This document shows positions 5,349-22,918 of a stretch of 64,000 nucleotides of DNA, piece after piece; within the stretch, counting starts at the first letter, position 1, and each line of letters opens with the position of its first letter. The notes under the pieces were generated by a model. That model was not told where the DNA came from. It was given only the letters and a program-made list of their open reading frames with translations, and ran no database searches. The DNA is from an uncultured virus (IMG/VR IMGVR_UViG_3300008259_004339). Its lineage: Duplodnaviria; Heunggongvirae; Uroviricota; Caudoviricetes. Both the position numbers and the translations under genes were made by a program. Location: the IMG/VR virus record IMGVR_UViG_3300008259_004339, positions 1 through 64,000 of that record, one strand, 5' to 3'.

Positions 5349-6962
5349 ATGCCTCAGTTTCCATCTCAAAATCTAAATACACAAAAAATTTGTGAGTCAT
5401 ATCCCAGATTACTCCAAATCTACAGTAGTAGCTTAGTCCTCAATGGCACAGGCAGCCAAATTCAACTTTTAAATGTAACATCAAGCAATTCTTTAAGCGC
5501 TAGTTACGCACCTTGTAGTTGCCCCATAATGCAAACTGGTAGCACCTACCCAATCACATCCAGTTGGGCACTTTATACAGTCACAGCAAGCTATATACAA
5601 ATAACAAATGTAAGCTATCCTGTTAAAAAAATATTTAATAACTATACAATATCATATACTACCGATTATACAATCTTATGCGATGCTACAAGTGGATCAT
5701 TTGATGTCAAATTACCAAATCCAGTGGGTAATACTAACATCTATAATATAAAGAAAATAGATACTAGTGGACACCGCGTTAATGTCACAGTCTCAAACGC
5801 TTCATTTATAGACTACGATCTAACTCAAAGTATCTCTCATAAAGGAACAAATATGGTAGTTTTTGATATCAAAACAGTAGGAAGTGCTACTGTAACTTGG
5901 AATAGTGGTAGTGCTCAAAGCACATTTAGAGTTACACAAACAAGTGGTAGTAGAGCTATAAAACAAACCAAACGAATATTTGTTTATCAACCGGGTAAAA
6001 GTCAGCAAGTCATTTGCACAAGTAAATTTGGTACGGGAGTAGACGGTATAAAAAAGAGCATAGGTAGCTTTGATGATGATGATGGATACTTCTTTCAGAG
6101 TAGTGGCAGTAGCTTTGGCATTGTACTTAGAAAAACTATTAATAAGATCAAAACTGATACTTTTGTCAGTCAAAGTAGTTGGAACCTAGATAAAATGAAT
6201 GGATCAGGTCCAAGCGGTAACATATTAGATACCAATAAAGCACAAATTTATACAATAGATTATGAATGGTTAGGCGTGGGTAGAGTAAGATATGGCGTGG
6301 TACAAAAAGGTATAGTAATTTATGTACACGAAATAAATAACTACAATAGTTTAGAAACAGTGTATCTACGTAATCCCAATTTGCCTATTAGATTCGAAAT
6401 AACTACCCACAAAAATACTACAACTGGCAGCTTACTGACACAAATATGTAGTACAGTCATAAGCGAAGGCGGTTTTCAAAACACCGGAAAAAGAGTAGTA
6501 GCAGCAAATTATGCAGGAGCTGCAATTGCTTCAGCAGAATACGATGGCGTATTATTTTTAAGATACAATAGCATCTCTTCAAAATGCGCTCAAATAATAC
6601 CAGAACAATTGGATTTTTTAGCAGAACCAGGCAATAATAGTCCTTTTAGTGGTAGATGGGATTTGCTAGTTAATCCAACTGTTACAGACCCTTTAACTTG
6701 GCTCAATGTCACAGGATCAGTAGTCACACAAATAGCCACAACCAATACAGGTAATGTCATTATAAATCCTGGTACAGTCATAGCAACAGGATACTTTTCC
6801 GGCACAGGCGGAGCAGGCGTTGGTGATAAAGTAGCACTGGATCCATATTATGGGTTGGGTAGAAAAATAGATAATACAAGCGACATATTAGCCATTGGTA
6901 TAAAAACCTATAATAATACTTACACAATATACCCAGCACTCGTTATAAGAGAACTAACTTAA
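5349..6962 (+). CDS. Putative virion structural / tail-associated protein (possibly two fused genes)
   Basis: S/T/G-rich beta character, SASYA/TSSWA/TASY motifs, DYTILCDATSG...LP...IKKID module; abrupt change near 5860. Confidence 0.6.
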   Translation: MPQFPSQNLNTQKICESYPRLLQIYSSSLVLNGTGSQIQLLNVTSSNSLSASYAPCSCPIMQTGSTYPITSSWALYTVTASYIQITNVSYPVKKIFNNYTISYTTDYTILCDATSGSFDVKLPNPVGNTNIYNIKKIDTSGHRVNVTVSNASFIDYDLTQSISHKGTNMVVFDIKTVGSATVTWNSGSAQSTFRVTQTSGSRAIKQTKRIFVYQPGKSQQVICTSKFGTGVDGIKKSIGSFDDDDGYFFQSSGSSFGIVLRKTINKIKTDTFVSQSSWNLDKMNGSGPSGNILDTNKAQIYTIDYEWLGVGRVRYGVVQKGIVIYVHEINNYNSLETVYLRNPNLPIRFEITTHKNTTTGSLLTQICSTVISEGGFQNTGKRVVAANYAGAAIASAEYDGVLFLRYNSISSKCAQIIPEQLDFLAEPGNNSPFSGRWDLLVNPTVTDPLTWLNVTGSVVTQIATTNTGNVIINPGTVIATGYFSGTGGAGVGDKVALDPYYGLGRKIDNTSDILAIGIKTYNNTYTIYPALVIRELT

Positions 6963-6965
6963 ATT

Positions 6966-7041
6966 TGGTGGGTCAAACCGGACTTGAACCGATAACCAAA
7001 GAATTATGAGTTCTACGCTCTAACCATTGAGCTATTGACCC
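6966..7041 (-). tRNA. tRNA with CAT anticodon, Ile2-type (lysidine) more likely than Met
   Basis: GGGTCAATAGCTCAATGGTTAGAGCGTAGAACT-CAT-AATTCTTTGGTTATCGGTTCAAGTCCGGTTTGACCCACCA; canonical cloverleaf resembling bacterial tRNA-Ile2. Confidence 0.9.
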
Positions 7042-7064
7042 GTAAATACTTTTACTTTAAAAAA

Positions 7065-7157
7065 TGGTGGCTCCGTAGGGAATTGAACCCTATCAGCACC
7101 CAAATCTAGGGATTATACAGATTATAAGTCTGCCCATGCACCATACATCACAGAGCC
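7065..7157 (-). tRNA. tRNA with TAT anticodon (Ile) and long variable arm
   Basis: GGCTCTG/CGGAGCC acceptor, GCAGA-CT-TAT-AA-TCTGT anticodon arm, 24-nt variable region, TAGGG-TTCAATT-CCCTA T arm, ACCA end. Confidence 0.85.
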
Positions 7158-7170
7158 ATTTTAAAAAAAC

Positions 7171-7243
7171 TGGAGCGGGTCCGAACTTTGCATTTCGCCT
7201 TCTGATCTGGTAGACCAGCGTGCCCTCTTTACACTTGACCCGC
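7171..7243 (-). tRNA. tRNA-Gly(ACC), atypical T arm
   Basis: GCGGGTC/GACCCGC acceptor with U73 (Gly identity), CTGGT-CT-ACC-AG-ATCAG anticodon arm, T loop TGCAAA, TCCA end. Confidence 0.75.
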
Positions 7244-7253
7244 ATTTAAATTC

Positions 7254-7540
7254 AAATAGGAAGGACTAATGATTACCTCCAAGTTTCACAATATGCACCG
7301 TTATTCATCCACAATCCATAAAGTTAATTACTCTCTATGTTAACGATTGATGGGATTGGTTTCCCACAACGACCTACGATATATCATTTATTTTAGCTAC
7401 GATGTCGTTACGCTTGAATTATAGGTTGTACGACCCACAATCCGCCATAGACTTACACTGCACATTATTACTCCAACCAATAATGATTCTTCACCACTAT
7501 TGTGCGTTACCCCTATACAAAGGTTGTTCCGCCACTATCT
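7254..7540 (-). ncRNA. Candidate ~287-nt highly structured ncRNA
   Basis: ORF-free spacer between tRNAs; closing stem AGATAG/CTATTT, nested helices CACAATA/TATTGTG and GGATTGTGGGT/ACCTATAATTC, several hairpins; boxA motif directly upstream. Confidence 0.65.
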
Positions 7541-7541
7541 T

Positions 7542-7557
7542 AAATTGTTAAAGAACT
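7542..7557 (-). promoter_or_regulatory. rrn-type boxA antitermination motif
   Basis: AGTTCTTTAACAATTT versus E. coli rrn boxA TGCTCTTTAACAATTT; recurs before several RNA genes. Confidence 0.65.
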
Positions 7558-7566
7558 ATCAAAAAA

Positions 7567-7642
7567 TGGTGCCTATGACTGGATTCGAACCAGTACTACC
7601 GAAATTTTAAGTTTCGTGACTCTGCCGTTGGTCTACATAGGC
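7567..7642 (-). tRNA. tRNA-Leu(TAA) with short variable loop
   Basis: GCCTATG/CATAGGC acceptor, CGAAA-CT-TAA-AA-TTTCG, 5-nt variable loop, TTCGAAT T loop, ACCA end. Confidence 0.9.
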
Positions 7643-7644
7643 AT

Positions 7645-7660
7645 AAATTGTTTAAAGAAC
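7645..7660 (-). promoter_or_regulatory. boxA-like motif
   Basis: GTTCTTTAAACAATTT between the promoter at 7680-7707 and tRNA-Leu(TAA). Confidence 0.6.
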
Positions 7661-7679
7661 CATCACTTACTACTCTTTT

Positions 7680-7707
7680 ATCTTACCACATCATCTTCTG
7701 ATGTCAA
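7680..7707 (-). promoter_or_regulatory. Sigma70-type promoter
   Basis: TTGACA-N16-TAAGAT with GTGG immediately before the -10. Confidence 0.75.
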
Positions 7708-7723
7708 CTGCTTTTTCAAAAAA

Positions 7724-7800
7724 TGGTAGCTAGGGTCAGATTCGAACTGACACTGTACACTTTTTGAGAGTGCTGCCTCCTGCCTTTGGGCTACCTAGCC
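7724..7800 (-). tRNA. tRNA-Leu(CAA) with short variable loop
   Basis: GGCTAGG/CCTAGCT acceptor, GCACT-CT-CAA-AA-AGTGT, 5-nt variable loop, GTCAG-TTCGAAT-CTGAC, ACCA end. Confidence 0.9.
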
Positions 7801-7809
7801 ATTTAAAAT

Positions 7810-7918
7810 TGTTCTTCCAATGGATTTGCACCATCATTTACGATATGGAAGAGTTACCGTTAGACTTTCACGAATAGTAGAGTCATTATTAATGTTTCTC
7901 TACGCACGATATAGTTCC
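7810..7918 (-). ncRNA. Candidate small RNA ending in a tRNA-like minihelix
   Basis: GTAGAG/CTCTAC hairpin, then TCTTCCA/TGGAAGA acceptor-like stem enclosing ATGG-TGCAAAT-CCAT T-arm-like hairpin, ending ACAA. Confidence 0.45.
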
Positions 7919-7924
7919 TAAATT

Positions 7925-8018
7925 TGGTGGTTCCGCCCGGATTCGAACCGAGACCGTGCTCAAATCTAGAGCTTATCAACGTTATAAGCGTTGCGTTCTA
8001 CCGTTAAACTACGGAACC
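7925..8018 (-). tRNA. tRNA with TAT anticodon (Ile) and long variable arm, second copy
   Basis: GGTTCCG/CGGAACC acceptor, CAACG-CT-TAT-AA-CGTTG, 24-nt variable region with GCTC-TAGATTT-GAGC hairpin, TTCGAAT T loop, ACCA end. Confidence 0.88.
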
Positions 8019-8024
8019 ACTAAA

Positions 8025-8101
8025 TGGTAGCGGGGGAGTGAATTGAACACTCTACCTTCCGGTTATGAGCCGGACGATCTATTCCGTTGATCTACCCCGC
8101 A
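8025..8101 (-). tRNA. Initiator-like tRNA-fMet(CAT)
   Basis: TGCGGGG/CCCCGCT with 1:72 mismatch, TCCGG-CT-CAT-AA-CCGGA, overall similarity to bacterial fMet tRNA, ACCA end. Confidence 0.85.
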
Positions 8102-8124
8102 AATTTTTAAAAGAACATCAAATC

Positions 8125-8767
8125 TTATATCTTAGCTTTGTCTCTATCTCTTTCATATCCTTTAACTTCAATAAAGACATTATCATAATCTAATAATTTA
8201 AAGTCTGGAAAATATCTGTGGTAAGATTCATTCCAATAATATTGGAAATTTTCTTCAATCTTATTTGACCATCTTATATTATTTTTGTTTAAATAATCTA
8301 TTACCAATAATTCCCATTTACCAAGACAACTAGTTTCATTACCTAAACTATCTATAGTCTTAATTGTTTTAACTCTACCACAAACATTTTTACTAGAATA
8401 AGATTCTGGATTATCATCCACTGCTTTCTTCATTTTCAATGAATGTTCCAACCTTTTTTCTTTAGTCCAAACTTTCTTCTGTACTTAACTTAAAGTTTCT
8501 ACCTCTATAAATAGCCGCACATTTATTGCCACAAAAATATACTTTTTTTCGTTTTCTTTTTTTAGAAAACAAAATTATCTGATTACATTCACAGCATTTT
8601 AATGGATTTTTTTCATAATCATCAATAGAGAGTATAGTCCTTGATTTTGCAAAACATTGCAAACTACAATATTTTCTATTTCTTTCTCTAGCTCTAGAAT
8701 TGTATTTTATTATAGAACTACAAACATTACATTTATTTGGATTTAACAAGTATTCTTCTTCTGTCAT
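8125..8767 (-). mobile_element. Homing-endonuclease-like gene (Cys-rich N-terminus plus PD-(D/E)XK nuclease), split by a frameshift near 8455-8475
   Basis: ORF 8462-8767 has CxxC/YCS/FCGNKC zinc motifs; ORF 8125-8451 has KWE...YFPDF...FIEVKG; the second frame reads through as KVWTKEKRLEHSLKMKK. Confidence 0.65.
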
Positions 8768-8842
8768 ATCTAATATATATTAGAGAGCCAAACAAGAATA
8801 CATTTTATTTACACAAAAGTTAAAATTTCAAGGAACAATAAA

Positions 8843-8914
8843 TGGTAGCTGGTATGAGTGCTGCCCTCATTAAAGATTCCGTATGAAAGAATCTTGCTTG
8901 CTGAAGCCCCAGCC
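8843..8914 (-). tRNA. Atypical tRNA-like gene, CAT anticodon, extended anticodon stem
   Basis: GGCTGG/CCAGCT acceptor, GCTT-CAGC-AAGC mini D arm, 8-bp AAGATTCT/GGAATCTT stem with TT-CAT-AC loop, ATGAG-GGCAGCA-CTCAT T arm, ACCA end. Confidence 0.65.
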
Positions 8915-8922
8915 ATTACAAA

Positions 8923-8997
8923 TGGTCGCTCGCCTAAGAATCTCACTTAGTTACCAATGGTTATGAGCCATCGTCAAATAATAACCTGCCGCCAGCT
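8923..8997 (-). tRNA. Atypical tRNA-like gene, CAT anticodon (degenerate fMet-like)
   Basis: AGCTGGC/GCGAGCG acceptor with mismatches, CAGGT-TATT-ATTTG D arm, GATGG-CT-CAT-AA-CCATT, CTAAG-TGAGATT-CTTAG, ACCA end. Confidence 0.6.
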
Positions 8998-9128
8998 GTT
9001 TAAATTGTTTATAAAGAACTATCCTAAAAATTATGTTGGGTGTATCTATTGAATACTCTATCCACCCAACAAACAGAGTATACCATGCGCTAACCCCGCA
9101 ACCAAGAAGTTTTCAACCAAACATCAAA

Positions 9129-9204
9129 TGGTAGAGCCACAGAGAATCGAACTCTGATCTATTCCGTGAAAGGGAATTATCCTAAACCGTTAGACGATGA
9201 CTCC
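9129..9204 (-). tRNA. tRNA-Glu(TTC)
   Basis: GGAGTCATCGTCTAACGGTTTAGGATAATTCCCT-TTC-ACGGAATAGATCAGAGTTCGATTCTCTGTGGCTCTACCA. Confidence 0.92.
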
Positions 9205-9212
9205 GTTAAATG

Positions 9213-9426
9213 AACTGGTAATATTCATTGAGTTACTTATCTACGTAAGCATCGCTGTGTAGCGGACATTTTTCAGCACAGCACACAGTTGTGTTTGGGT
9301 TAATCATTTAATATGTTTAATGATGAAAGTCAAATTCTACACGGAAAAAATGCTTTCGTAATCAATCACGATACTTAAAAGTGTAGTTGTCCCACAATAT
9401 ATGATTTACTTCGTTTATTACCAGTT
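9213..9426 (-). ncRNA. Candidate ~214-nt structured ncRNA
   Basis: Fills the Lys-Glu tRNA spacer; perfect 11-bp terminal stem AACTGGTAATA/TATTACCAGTT; inner helices CTACAC/GTGTAG, CATATATTGTG/CACAACTGTGTG, TCGTGAT/ATTACGA. Confidence 0.6.
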
Positions 9427-9430
9427 AAAA

Positions 9431-9507
9431 TGGTGGCCCCGGTGGGACTCGAACCCACGACCAAAAGCTTAAAAGGCTTCTGCTACTACCAACTGAGCTA
9501 CAAGGCC
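9431..9507 (-). tRNA. tRNA-Lys(TTT)
   Basis: GGCCTTGTAGCTCAGTTGGTAGTAGCAGAAGCCT-TTT-AAGCTTTTGGTCGTGGGTTCGAGTCCCACCGGGGCCACCA. Confidence 0.93.
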
Positions 9508-9510
9508 ATT

Positions 9511-9528
9511 AAAATTTGTTAAAGAACT
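9511..9528 (-). promoter_or_regulatory. boxA-like motif in the tRNA operon leader
   Basis: AGTTCTTTAACAAATTTT directly upstream of tRNA-Lys, downstream of a GGGAG-AAGCA-CTCCT hairpin. Confidence 0.6.
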
Positions 9529-9598
9529 ATTACTTACAGATGTTCTAGAGGAGTGCTTCTCCCACCACGCTGAAAGAACAAATACTTACTACTTCTTT

Positions 9599-9626
9599 AT
9601 CTTACCACTAAGTTTTCAAAGATCAA
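9599..9626 (-). promoter_or_regulatory. Sigma70-type promoter of the tRNA operon
   Basis: TTGATC-N16-TAAGAT with GTGG; downstream sequence nearly identical to that of the 7680 promoter. Confidence 0.7.
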
Positions 9627-9743
9627 CTTCTTTTTTCAAGAAGTTTTGAGGTAAATTATAAATATATACAAATATTCGTAAAATTACCAAAAAGATTATT
9701 TTTTAAACTTCTAAGTTATACTTATAAGTAAATAACTTTTATT

Positions 9744-10469
9744 ATGACATTAGAAGATCAAAATAATAAATATAAAAATTGGTATTATCGTATAATACAT
9801 CATCGTTTAAACAATCCGGTTTTAAACCAATATACAGAAACACATCATATAATTCCAAAGTGTTTAGGTGGGTTAAATTGTTCATCGAATTTAGTTGAAC
9901 TGACTGCTAGAGAACATTATATATGTCACCTTTTATTAACTTCTGTATTTCCATCTTCTTCCGTAGAATATAAGAAAATGTGGAAAGCGTTTGCTTCAAT
10001 GGCTTGGTATAAAAGCGAAAATCAACTTAGAGAATACAAAATAAATAATAGAATTTATCAAAAATTAAAAATCGAATTCAGTAAAATTCAATCACAACAT
10101 CAATCCGGCACATCTAATAGTGGTTATGGAAAAAAATGGTATCACAATGTAGAATTAAAATTAAGCAATAAATTTTATCCAAACAAAGTTCCTAATGGAT
10201 GGGTTTCTGGTAGGGTTATTAACTGGGATAAGTATTTCCTTCCAAAATTCGATTCAAAAGAAACAGAATGTATTCGTTGTAAAAAAATATTTTTACCTAG
10301 AACTTCTGTTCACAAATACTGTACAACTACGTGTGCCGATAAACATCTTTATAATTCCGATACAAAGAAAATTATTATTGAAAAGAACGGTATTACTAAA
10401 TTGACCAAACGAGAAAATTTACATATGTATAAAAAATATGGATGGAATTTAATAGATAGGCTTTATTAA
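9744..10469 (+). mobile_element. HNH homing endonuclease
   Basis: YTETHHIIPKCLGG...NLVELTAREHYICHLLL; antisense insertion in the tRNA array. Confidence 0.88.
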
Positions 10470-10471
10470 AA

Positions 10472-10552
10472 TGGCGCTCCGGGAGGGACTTGAACCCCCA
10501 TTTTCATCCATTTATGCACTTAGGGCTTAGAAGACCCCGCCAGTACCGGAGC
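10472..10552 (-). tRNA. D-armless tRNA-Arg(TCT) with long variable region
   Basis: GCTCCGG/CCGGAGC acceptor, only TACTGGC in place of the D arm, GGGGT-CT-TCT-AA-GCCCT, 22-nt variable region, GGGGG-TTCAAGT-CCCTC, GCCA end. Confidence 0.75.
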
Positions 10553-21535: not shown

Positions 21536-22109
21536 TGATGATATATCCGATGTATCTCAAGATAAACAAAAATTCGTATCTGTCATTGACAACAACGAGT
21601 TATACTTTTACAACGATGTAAATACAGAATCAGCACTTGTAGTAAACAAAACTCTAAGTGATCTAGCTAGACAACTACTAATAGCACAAATTACATTTGA
21701 TCTACAAGAAACTCCCCACATCAAATTACACATCAATAGTGATGGTGGTGAAGTATTTGGTGCATTGAGTATAGTAGATAGAATTCAAGCATCCAAAGTA
21801 CCTGTACATTCATATGCAGAAGGATTAGTAGCAAGCGCTAGCACACTAATCAGTGTAAGTTGTCACAAACGTTATATACGTAAAAACACTATCTTATTGA
21901 TTCATCAAGTAAGAAGTTGGTTTGAAGGTACATACGAAGACTTCAATGACGAAAAACAAAATATGGATTTGATAATGAAAGTTGTCAAAGACATATATTT
22001 GAAACATACAAAGTTTACTGAAGACGAATTAAATACACTGTTAAAACGTGACATTTATTTGAACGCAGAAGACGCAATCAAATACGGATTAGCTGATGAA
22101 ATCGTCTAG
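21510..22109 (+). CDS. clpP: ClpP-family protease
   Basis: LHINSDGGEV, GLVASAST (catalytic Ser), LLIHQ (His), RDIYLNAEDAIKYGLADEI. Confidence 0.9.
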   Translation: MTKKLTLNNDDISDVSQDKQKFVSVIDNNELYFYNDVNTESALVVNKTLSDLARQLLIAQITFDLQETPHIKLHINSDGGEVFGALSIVDRIQASKVPVHSYAEGLVASASTLISVSCHKRYIRKNTILLIHQVRSWFEGTYEDFNDEKQNMDLIMKVVKDIYLKHTKFTEDELNTLLKRDIYLNAEDAIKYGLADEIV

Positions 22110-22428
22110 AGATAAAGAAGGATACGTATATATCATCAGTAATTGTAACTTTCCTGGTTATTACAAAGTGGGAGTCACTAATGATATAAAGTCAAGATTA
22201 CGTACATATCAAACAGCATCTCCACTGCGTAACTATAAAATTGAATATTATGTTCAACACCCAGATTGTTATGAAGCGGAGAAGAAAATAGCTGAAAAGT
22301 TAAGATATTTTGCTACCGAAATCAAAAATGAATGGTTCAAATGTGACTTGGAATTGGTCAAGGGAAGACTAGATGAAAGTTTAGAACCCGAAGAAAATGT
22401 GTTGACTTTTATAAAAAGAGGTGTATAG
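22096..22428 (+). CDS. GIY-YIG (T5orf172-like) nuclease
   Basis: GYVYII...YKVGVT...SRLRTYQT...EKKI...NEWF. Confidence 0.85.
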   Translation: MKSSRDKEGYVYIISNCNFPGYYKVGVTNDIKSRLRTYQTASPLRNYKIEYYVQHPDCYEAEKKIAEKLRYFATEIKNEWFKCDLELVKGRLDESLEPEENVLTFIKRGV

Positions 22429-22429
22429 T
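22402..22429 (+). promoter_or_regulatory. Sigma70-type promoter
   Basis: TTGACT-N16-TATAGT. Confidence 0.55.
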
Positions 22430-22441
22430 TATAATATAGTT

Positions 22442-22918
22442 ATGAATACAATAGCTAATAAATTGATCTGTTTGAACCTAAGTTGGACCGAATGGTTGAA
22501 ACTACCTATTCGCTCCTGGGACTTGGTAATCAATTCAGCTCATATGTCTGTACGTGTACCAACTGTTATCATCGCTGTTAATTTCAGCAAAATGCCTGTA
22601 AAGTCATTTAAGGGAAAACCCAGCAAAGATGCAATTTACAATCGTGATAATGGTATCTGTCAGTACACAGGCAAGAAGATTGATCGTCACTCAGCTACTG
22701 TAGATCATATTCTACCTCGTAGTAAAGGTGGAGAAGACAGTTGGACCAATCTGGTACTGTGTTCACGGGATATCAATTCTAAAAAAGGTAATAGGTTGAA
22801 TACAGAAGCTGGTTTGAAGTTGATCAAACAACCTAGTATTCCACAACCAATTCCAGTGTCAGCTTTGATTAAAGAAGCAAAACACAAAGATTGGGAACAC
22901 TTTTTGATGGGTGTTTAA
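22442..22918 (+). CDS. HNH endonuclease (probably with an internal in-frame deletion)
   Basis: IYNRDNGICQYTG...TVDHILPRSKGG..SWTNLVLC..INSKKGN. Confidence 0.85.
   Translation: MNTIANKLICLNLSWTEWLKLPIRSWDLVINSAHMSVRVPTVIIAVNFSKMPVKSFKGKPSKDAIYNRDNGICQYTGKKIDRHSATVDHILPRSKGGEDSWTNLVLCSRDINSKKGNRLNTEAGLKLIKQPSIPQPIPVSALIKEAKHKDWEHFLMGV

Follow-up and report, generated by a model that had tools for sequence, protein, structure and literature searches.

A structured RNA gene in a phage tRNA cluster

We analysed 64,000 nucleotides (nt) of DNA, hereafter the window, from an uncultured Caudoviricetes virus (positions 1 to 64,000 of IMG/VR record IMGVR_UViG_3300008259_004339), and focused on a structured RNA of ~292 nt that is encoded on the minus strand at 7250..7541. 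The window is phage DNA with 32% G+C that encodes a family B DNA polymerase, a clamp-loader-like AAA protein, virion proteins and many sugar-nucleotide enzymes. Judged by the DNA polymerase, Microcystis phage Mel-JY01 is the closest isolate (41.8% identity), with T4-like cyanophages next at ~28%. ARAGORN and Rfam place a minus-strand tRNA cluster at 6966-10552, and the structured RNA occupies a 409-nt gap in it, between tRNA-Leu (anticodon taa; 7567..7642, minus strand), its upstream neighbour, and a tRNA of 93 nt (7065-7157) to which ARAGORN assigns Ile(tat). The 5' end of the RNA is at 7541, its helix-closed core spans 7254-7541 and its mature 3' end probably lies at 7250/7251. A tRNA-Gly-like gene (7171..7243, minus strand) starts 11 nt after the closing helix.

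A preliminary description of this locus had proposed a highly structured non-coding RNA embedded in the tRNA operon, and covariation among homologues bears this out. Homologues were collected through a neighbouring virion protein, through exact words of the RNA in IMG/VR (4 and 19 stretches) and through the same word in JGI metagenomes (61 stretches); individual loci are denoted below by L numbers. The RNA was detected with nhmmer in 93 of 99 loci, giving 62 distinct matches, and the 46 distinct full-length homologues (80 contig loci) are 69-98% identical to the window. When an 83-pair model was laid over these 46 sequences, 97.8% of the cells were paired, compared with 40-45% when the partners were slid, and 26 pairs changed on both sides (3-7 with slid partners); none of 500 shuffles matched the observed score. 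An 86-pair model, which adds the divergent sequences L138 and L151 and three more helical elements, covers 48 distinct sequences with 96.5% of cells paired (36-47% in slid controls) and 36 pairs changing on both sides (5-14 in slid controls). RNAalifold recovered mostly the same helices from the initial 14 sequences. The single-sequence fold is only modest (minimum free energy -76.7 kcal/mol, z = -2.99, with 1 of 200 shuffles equally good), and it is the comparative evidence that is decisive. The preliminary description had seen no open reading frame (ORF) on the minus strand, and 7254-7540 indeed contains none of at least 50 amino acids on either strand. Indels in the loops of the homologues measure 1, 2 or 3 nt, so the region is non-coding; a small ORF in P6-P7 was considered and ruled out, as indels of 1-2 nt disrupt its frame. 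These results confirm a structured RNA gene on the minus strand at 7250..7541.

Counting RNA positions from window position 7541, the RNA is closed by helix P1 (AGAUAG/CUAUUU), which pairs 7535-7540 with 7254-7259 (RNA 2-7 with 283-288). Three of its pairs change on both sides, and its sequence differs across lineages (e.g., CAUG/CAUA... in L070, L077 and L058). Next comes a 5' junction (7504..7532) that consists of GUGGCGGAACAA, the P2 hairpin and UAACGCAC, and that is invariant or covarying throughout. Within it, the 3-bp helix Pa (7530-7532 with 7504-7506; RNA 10-12 with 36-38) encloses P2 (7509-7524; RNA 18-33), in which three of five pairs covary. The P3 hairpin (7478..7502; RNA 40-64) is 8 bp long in the window, other clades having 14 bp and a GAAA tetraloop, and four of its five outer pairs change on both sides among the 48 sequences. 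An expanded domain of ~180 nt (7288..7468) follows, for which covariation indicates a five-way junction. This junction is closed by the long-range helices P4 (7460-7468 with 7288-7296; RNA 74-82 with 246-254), P4a (7455-7457 with 7299-7301; RNA 85-87 with 241-243) and P4b (7448-7452 with 7307-7311; RNA 90-94 with 231-235), and it holds P5 (7416-7443; RNA 99-126), P6 (7370-7407; RNA 135-172), P7 (7350-7367; RNA 175-192) and P8/P9 (7312-7349; RNA 193-230). P6 carries a conserved 21-nt loop, L6 (UAGCUAAAAUAAAUGAUAUAU, 7379..7399). The last element is the covarying P10 hairpin (GGAGG-UAAUCAUUAGU-CCUUC, 7260..7280; RNA 262-282), with a 5-bp stem and an 11-nt loop, directly after which the 3' strand of P1 begins.

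The stretch AAUGAU in L6 (7383-7388; RNA 154-159) is complementary to AUCAUU in L10 (7268-7273; RNA 269-274), and both are nearly invariant. Five core pairs of this putative L6-L10 interaction are kept in 46-48 of the 48 sequences, and two-sided change is seen at two pairs in a single lineage, L151 (identical to L234), where A155-U273 is replaced by C-G and two further pairs become U-G. A second pattern search gained only a duplicate of L151.

Eight of the eleven structural features named in the preliminary description recur in this model: the closing stem AGATAG/CTATTT (P1, with a compensatory change from TAG/CTA to ATG/CAT in three sequences), TGCA/TGCA as part of P4, GTCTA/TGGAT with the second TGGAT as partner, an 11-bp hairpin (P5), TAACGAC/GTCGTTG (the core of P6), TGGGA/TCCCA (P7), CATAGAG/CTTTATG (P9) and GGAGG/CCTTC (P10). 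Three do not survive. Two helices that covary, P3 (local) and P4 (long-range), take the place of the long-range helix CACAATA/TATTGTG and of the hairpin CATTATT/AATAATG, and the suggested GGTT/AACC kissing loop fails, the P7 loop being AAAACAAAA in a large clade. The absence of RNase P, tmRNA and group I or II intron signatures, also claimed there, agrees with the ARAGORN and Rfam searches of the RNA.

Transcription, mature ends and surroundings

A sigma-70-type promoter-like site (TTGACA-16-TAAGAT with TG before the -10 element, 10 of 12 matches; 7680..7707, minus strand) lies upstream of tRNA-Leu(taa) and the RNA; as a class, such sites are not enriched in the region (19 versus 16.2 ± 3.9 in shuffles). 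Two boxA-like strings follow on the same strand: TTCTTTAAACAATTT (7645..7659), 3 nt before tRNA-Leu, and TTCTTTAACAATTT (7542..7555), which ends exactly at the 5' end of the RNA and is kept in homologues that follow a tRNA. The preliminary description had noted that the RNA is preceded by this motif just as the tRNAs are, and the string TTCTTTAA(A)CAATTT indeed occurs twice in the window, where 0.05 occurrences are expected by chance. It appears to resemble the boxA of rRNA operons. Lying 0 and 3 nt before mature 5' ends, it may serve processing no less than antitermination.

The form of the RNA found in the window, hereafter the long form, follows tRNA-Leu(taa) in most loci and tRNA-Lys in L029. 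In five others (L070, L077, L058, L096 and L151) a promoter-like site of its own (TTGACA-N16/17-TATACT) and a boxA-like string stand directly upstream. In four loci a group I intron (Rfam Intron_gpI, 71-75 bits) is found just upstream of the RNA, at the place occupied by tRNA-Leu(taa) in other loci (L009:12513-12705, L004:13686-13878, L015:17841-18033 and L020:582-767), and we infer that these introns sit inside tRNA-Leu; the tRNA-Leu of the window is intronless. The string 'GAGAAAGTCCAGAC', which appeared RNase-P-like in relatives, is part of this intron. Two natural deletion variants were also found. In L007 (11981-12700 of a 171-kb contig that otherwise equals the window), the 5' half of tRNA-Leu(taa) is fused to RNA position ~84, so that the 3' half of the tRNA and the first ~83 nt of the RNA are missing, and four metagenome contigs break at the same point. 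L046 retains only the last ~65 nt of the RNA, behind a promoter and boxA-like string and before the tRNA-like gene.

Part of the stretch 7150-7720 (571 nt, half of which is the RNA) occurs in 10 studies, among which 13 RNA-labelled runs contain 32-51% of its sampled words. Contigs of four RNA-labelled runs were aligned to 6900-8150 (1251 nt). Run X2 (36 million letters) covers 7250-7541 only, X4 (10 million letters) covers 7239-7500 only and X6 (396 million letters) covers 7278-7641, the uncovered parts in these three runs being no evidence of absence. In X1 (1035 million letters) many parts are covered, and its longest contig (513 nt, 7171-7674) runs roughly from the predicted start site through the CCA end of the tRNA-like gene. 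The confinement of the X2 and X4 contigs to the RNA is in keeping with the discrete, accumulating RNA that had been anticipated. The RNA appears to be produced in abundance by itself rather than within a messenger.

One X2 contig (86 nt, at depth 4 compared with ~14 for contigs of the RNA body) joins 7541 to 7250, going back 292 nt with an ambiguity of 1 nt. In the sense of the RNA, the 3' end ...CCUAUUUGAAU runs onto the 5' end AAGAUAG..., both ends lying just outside P1, and three X2 contigs tile a closed 292-nt cycle. This head-to-tail joint defines the mature ends. No tandem copies of the RNA were found in the DNA of the 93 nhmmer-positive loci. The joint hints at a circular RNA, but reverse transcriptase that switches templates from end to end of an abundant linear RNA would also produce it. 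Both contigs of relatives that were examined contain an RNA_ligase domain of the Rnl2 type (PF09414; 97.9 bits and, under the cut-off, 24.9 bits), and neither of the two contains RtcB. As support for a circle this ligase is weak, being common in T4-like phages and unlinked to the RNA.

Searches of 50,697 phage records with blastn returned matches to tRNA-Leu alone for the RNA region and none for one short relative of the RNA (see below). The 3' 20-mer of the RNA had no matches when scanned across genome contigs, and therefore gives no clue to the host.

Elsewhere in the cluster, two tRNAs of 93-94 nt (7065-7157 and 7925-8018, both minus strand) are called Ile(tat) by ARAGORN and are also seen in relatives; the Rfam alignment of the latter shows an insertion of ~21 nt in the variable region. 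Homing-endonuclease-like genes lie within the cluster at 9744-10469 (plus strand) and 8125-8451 (minus strand), matching PHROG 655 and 15137, and more HNH and T5orf172 genes are found at 22096-22918.

Relation to the manA RNA motif

A search with the Rfam 15 families, including GOLLD, ROOL, OLE and raiA, at expectation values (E) up to 10 gave manA (RF01745) as the sole match on 7250-7541. The model aligns to 7340-7550 over its positions 1-192, in the correct register, with 14.2 bits (E 0.23-2.6), and a second local match places 7260-7281 on model positions 161-182 (9.5 bits). As controls, the same model scores 96.6 bits on Synechococcus phage S-CREM1 and 175.6 bits on Prochlorococcus phage P-SSM7; a score of 100.6 bits for S-CREM1 manA is given in Table 4 of PMC9964418.

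In the manA model, P1, which an optional hairpin may precede, is followed by GUGaCUGAAUAA, by a hairpin within a 2-bp helix and by UAAgGug. A helix that closes three hairpins comes next, then a long hairpin and a last hairpin (5-bp stem, 11-nt loop) directly before the 3' strand of P1. The window RNA and manA have P1 (the closing helix marked [[[[[ ]]]]] in manA), the junction strings, Pa/P2 and the last hairpin in common, and in the same order. In the core, the junction GUGGCGGAAYAA / UAACGCAC around P2 is kept, matching the manA consensus GUGaCUGAAUAA...UAAgGug. In the P10 region, with UUG before the hairpin as in manA, CUUGGAGG-UAAUCAUUAGU-CCUUC of the window stands against cuUGugGG-UAuacAguAAU-CCcaC of manA, with 19 of 25 aligned bases identical by our own count. 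A role of P10 as an anti-Shine-Dalgarno mimic was considered and is not general, canonical manA having GUGAG/CUCAC at this place. The single P3 hairpin stands in place of the three-hairpin domain of manA, and the position of the long hairpin is occupied by the ~180-nt P4-P9 domain. Accordingly, the window RNA measures 292 nt and manA ~190 nt. Both are phage-borne, manA being carried by T4-like phages of aquatic bacteria; the manA samples are marine, whereas the window RNA comes from freshwater.

Shorter relatives bridge the two. A search pattern for the 5' junction (GTGGCGGAAYAA, 10-22 nt, TAACGCAC) retrieved 118 viral stretches, compared with 19 for the 3' word. The 66 distinct sequences that were compared (80 fetched loci) comprised 16 of the long form and 50 of a short ('GUGGCGGAA') form of 159-201 nt. 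Seven of 12 short forms tested match manA with 24.9-47.3 bits (E 1e-9 to 6e-3), and the short forms share the 3' motif GAAAnUUGnnGGUrA, which was not part of the selection. The isolate Mel-JY01 has neither a manA match nor a convincing 5' motif. On one IMG/VR contig, a Pistol ribozyme match (L163:321-397, minus strand; 51.7 bits, cut-off 34.5) lies ~55 nt downstream of a short manA-like RNA.

The L6-L10 complement may also have a parallel in manA. The 2010 alignment of Weinberg et al. annotates a pseudoknot (SS_cons_2) between the loop of the long hairpin and that of the last hairpin, marked 'pseudoknot?' in the main text (PMC2864571). The loops of the Rfam manA consensus are complementary (UaCUguA and uacAgu), and so are those of different subclasses: AAACA/UGUUU, GCAAGG/CCUUGC, AUCAAG/CUUGAU, GCAAGU/ACUUGC and AUCAUU/AAUGAU, always involving the loop of the last hairpin. 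As no single one of these complements is significant, the argument for the pseudoknot rests on the pattern across subclasses, from which we read L6-L10 as the likely counterpart of the annotated manA pseudoknot.

The genomic position points in the same direction. In S-CREM1, canonical manA (10215-10429) lies between tRNA-Leu (10132-10213) and tRNA-Asn (10429-10501) with gaps of 0-1 nt, which is the same place after tRNA-Leu within a tRNA cluster as that of the window RNA. In P-SSM7, manA is found 39 nt upstream of a coding sequence (CDS). The interval between tRNA-Leu and tRNA-Asn, which holds manA in S-CREM1, contains in P-SSM7 (L222, GU071103.1 117190-118209) a CDS annotated 'tRNA ligase'. 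Many short forms are located just upstream of ORFs. In this sample the long form, by contrast, occurs only inside tRNA clusters or downstream of a promoter of its own, and never before an ORF. A position in the 5' untranslated region (5'-UTR), which is the basis of the cis-regulatory label of manA, is not what the window RNA shows, lying as it does between tRNA-Leu and a tRNA-like gene.

Because of the bridging sequences, the common architecture, the putative common pseudoknot and the common genomic position, our best reading is that the window RNA is a divergent, enlarged structural variant of the manA class. The preliminary description had considered it an RNA of no known family, a view that this relationship replaces; the strong Rfam match that it had named as a refutation was, formally, not obtained (14.2 bits).

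A probable trans-acting RNA and its tRNA-Gly-like neighbour

The RNA is constantly accompanied by tRNA-Gly-like genes. In the window, the gene at 7171..7243 has the acceptor stem GCGGGUC/GACCCGC, U73, an encoded CCA, the anticodon loop CUACCAG and the T loop UGCAA; it received neither an ARAGORN call nor a match to the Rfam tRNA family (RF00005) at E up to 10. Genes of this kind, for example in L034, L003, L070 and L060, begin 7-14 nt downstream of the RNA in 44 of 46 loci, one of the two misses having only 8 nt of downstream sequence. They occur as one copy or two in tandem, with three in one locus. The 45 distinct sequences form a cloverleaf in which the acceptor, D, anticodon and T stems fold and the acceptor and anticodon stems covary. 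Their consensus has G1-C72, mostly C2-G71, G3-C70, U73 and an encoded CCA; G1-C72, C2-G71, G3-C70 and U73 are presumably the Gly-type set of acceptor identity elements. Anticodon loops measure 6, 7 or 8 nt and hold ACC or UCC (C35-C36). The T loops all start with UG (UGC, UGU or UGA) in place of UUC, and some of them have 13 nt. In view of the T loop UGCAA, the variable loop sizes and the lack of an ARAGORN or RF00005 report, we call these genes tRNA-like and not tRNAs. T-box-like binding of this neighbour by the RNA through UUGGUUGGAG (GGU/GGA codons, UGGAG versus CUCCA) was considered and set aside, since the string is invariant and the anticodon loop of the neighbour is variable.

PMC7826273 describes staphylococcal tRNA-Gly species that are non-proteogenic: they escape EF-Tu, supply cell-wall synthesis and are marked by a T loop that has UGC or UGU where UUC is normal. 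The phage genes have this T-loop mark and the Gly-type acceptor features in common with them. Unlike the staphylococcal tRNAs, they are phage-borne and from freshwater, their anticodon loops have 6-8 nt with ACC or UCC, and some of their T loops have 13 nt. The interval that separates tRNA-Leu(caa) from the long tRNA (7801-7924, minus strand; 124 nt) is unannotated. By eye, it contains a hairpin GTAGAG...CTCTAC and a mini element resembling an acceptor and T arm (TCTTCCA...ATGG-TGCAAAT-CCAT-TGGAAGA), with a UGC T loop as well.

Taking these observations together, we consider it probable that the window encodes a trans-acting, self-assembling RNA of the manA type that is released from a tRNA transcript. 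The RNA would be co-transcribed with the tRNAs on the minus strand from the sigma-70-type promoter, behind the boxA-like element. Flanking tRNA and tRNA-like structures, together with P1, would set the stops for host tRNA-processing nucleases and exonucleases, leaving the discrete RNA of ~292 nt whose ends, 7541 and 7250, the X2 contigs show. Its fold, as the covariation shows, keeps the manA core (P1, the P2 junction and P10), with the first domain reduced to P3 and the long hairpin expanded into P4-P9. A recent preprint (bioRxiv 10.64898/2026.07.01.735769) reports, from cryo-electron microscopy, that manA RNAs occur as octamers, decamers and a 60-subunit icosahedral-like shell built from pentamers; the assemblies are held by the kissing loops L5-L7' and L8-L9' and need no ligand in vitro. 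By analogy, the window RNA would act in trans as a stable self-assembling RNA particle rather than as a 5'-UTR switch, would form homo-oligomers through loop-loop contacts, and part of its population may be ligated head to tail. Palindromic loop hexamers (UAGCUA and UAAUUA) are only a lead to such dimer contacts, ~2-3 being expected by chance in AT-rich loops by our own estimate.

Several points weigh against this reading. The match of 14.2 bits is far from the Rfam gathering cut-off of 55.2 for RF01745, and the first domain of manA, with its three hairpins and internal kissing pair (SS_cons_1), is absent, a single P3 hairpin of 8-14 bp being found instead. As the RNA fails on both the cut-off and the first domain, we do not file it under RF01745 as now defined. 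At E <=0.1, manA was matched neither by five of the 12 short forms nor by the two divergent long forms that were tested. The bridging set was chosen by a pattern from the window RNA, so its 5' likeness exists by construction, and sequence-only nhmmer detects the 3' likeness weakly (E 0.015 to >1). Loop complements of 4-7 nt are non-significant per sequence, shuffled loops reaching them in 4-97% of trials, and compensatory change in L6-L10 is restricted to one lineage within the long form. Equating the L8-L9' contact of the preprint with L6-L10 is a guess, and oligomerisation of the window RNA is put forward by analogy only. The expression evidence consists of assembled contigs of RNA-labelled runs, from which strand and level cannot be read, and DNA carry-over is possible for X1 and X6. 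Finally, the deletion variants L007 and L046 show that the RNA is dispensable in some genomes.

Among the alternatives, the one that survives best is a cis-acting leader: as a riboswitch-like manA aptamer, the RNA would govern how the tRNA-Gly-like gene or genes immediately downstream are read through, processed or folded. We regard this as unlikely. It is in line with the original proposal of manA as a cis-regulatory riboswitch candidate (PMC2864571), with the location of canonical manA before a CDS in P-SSM7, and with the short relatives L113, L108 and L117, in which the longest downstream ORF starts within ~30 nt and, in L113, a Shine-Dalgarno sequence can be read. The close spacing of RNA and tRNA-Gly-like gene in nearly all loci would also fit, as this pair is kept whether it follows tRNA-Leu, tRNA-Lys or its own promoter. 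However, neither a terminator nor an alternative-pairing expression platform lies in the interval from P1 to the tRNA-like gene, the one terminator-like site in 3.8 kb being elsewhere, and the RNA accumulates alone in small RNA libraries. The two partners can also be separated: the divergent long form L138 has no tRNA-like gene after the RNA, and in L046 this gene is retained downstream of the same promoter while the RNA is missing. The ligand-free assembly of manA in vitro, as described in the preprint cited above (bioRxiv 10.64898/2026.07.01.735769), likewise argues against a switch.

We find it still less plausible that the RNA is an independent ornate class with short convergent motifs shared with manA, which was the view of the preliminary description. 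No Rfam family reaches its threshold, and ~180 of the 292 nt (P4-P9) lack a counterpart in the manA model. Convergence would, however, have to account for four core elements that are collinear with manA (P1, the Pa/P2 junction strings, P10 with its 11-nt loop and the loop-loop pseudoknot), for the graded intermediates and for the genomic position shared with S-CREM1 manA. That the region lacks a function, being a spacer or what is left of a decaying element such as an intron or a duplicated tRNA region, with apparent structure arising from AT-rich repeats, is hardly credible: the natural deletion variants and a single-sequence z of only -2.99 would suit it, but 36 compensatory pairs, long invariant loops at 69-98% identity, 46 full-length homologues and the presence of the RNA in RNA libraries of several studies contradict it.

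Beyond the trans-acting manA-type RNA that we favour lies a more speculative and, in our judgement, doubtful extension, namely that the RNA is covalently circular in vivo. Such a ring would resist nucleases, form an RNA-only shell that exceeds the manA 60-mer in size and cooperate with the tRNA-Gly-like RNAs, which would be co-transcribed with it and would not decode, for instance by holding or presenting them. P1 brings the two ends of the RNA together in the manner of a nicked duplex, the kind of substrate on which ligases of the Rnl2 family act.

Non-tRNA RNAs that are freed by cutting of neighbouring tRNA or tRNA-like structures are known from T4 species 1 and 2 RNAs, from tRNA punctuation in phage or organelle transcripts and from the formation of the 3' end of MALAT1/mascRNA. 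The likeness of the window RNA to these lies in the mode of release, with putative enzymes, and no relation in sequence is claimed. GOLLD and ROOL form RNA-only cages through kissing loops, according to bioRxiv 10.1101/2024.12.08.627333. Like them, the window RNA is phage-encoded, adjoins tRNA genes and has many conserved loops; unlike them, it measures 292 nt and not ~580 to >800, and it matches neither Rfam model. A brief search of the open-access literature found no description of a long manA variant, of manA processing from tRNA transcripts or of a circular form.

Since 2010, manA has been an orphan 'riboswitch candidate', and in 2026 the formation of RNA-only cages in vitro was reported for it. 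Our analysis points to a much larger natural variant of manA, missed by current models, at no fewer than 80 loci on freshwater phage or metagenome contigs. The genomic and metatranscriptomic evidence suggests that manA-type RNAs can be stand-alone products of tRNA transcripts and not messenger leaders. The defined mature ends and the head-to-tail junction make circularisation directly testable; if the circular reading is true, this would be the first natural circular cage-forming RNA from a phage tRNA operon. As a natural 'insertion' variant, the RNA may be used to study how peripheral domains set cage geometry. Its constant pairing with tRNA-Gly-like genes that bear a non-ribosomal T-loop mark suggests a possible target of such particles in these phages.

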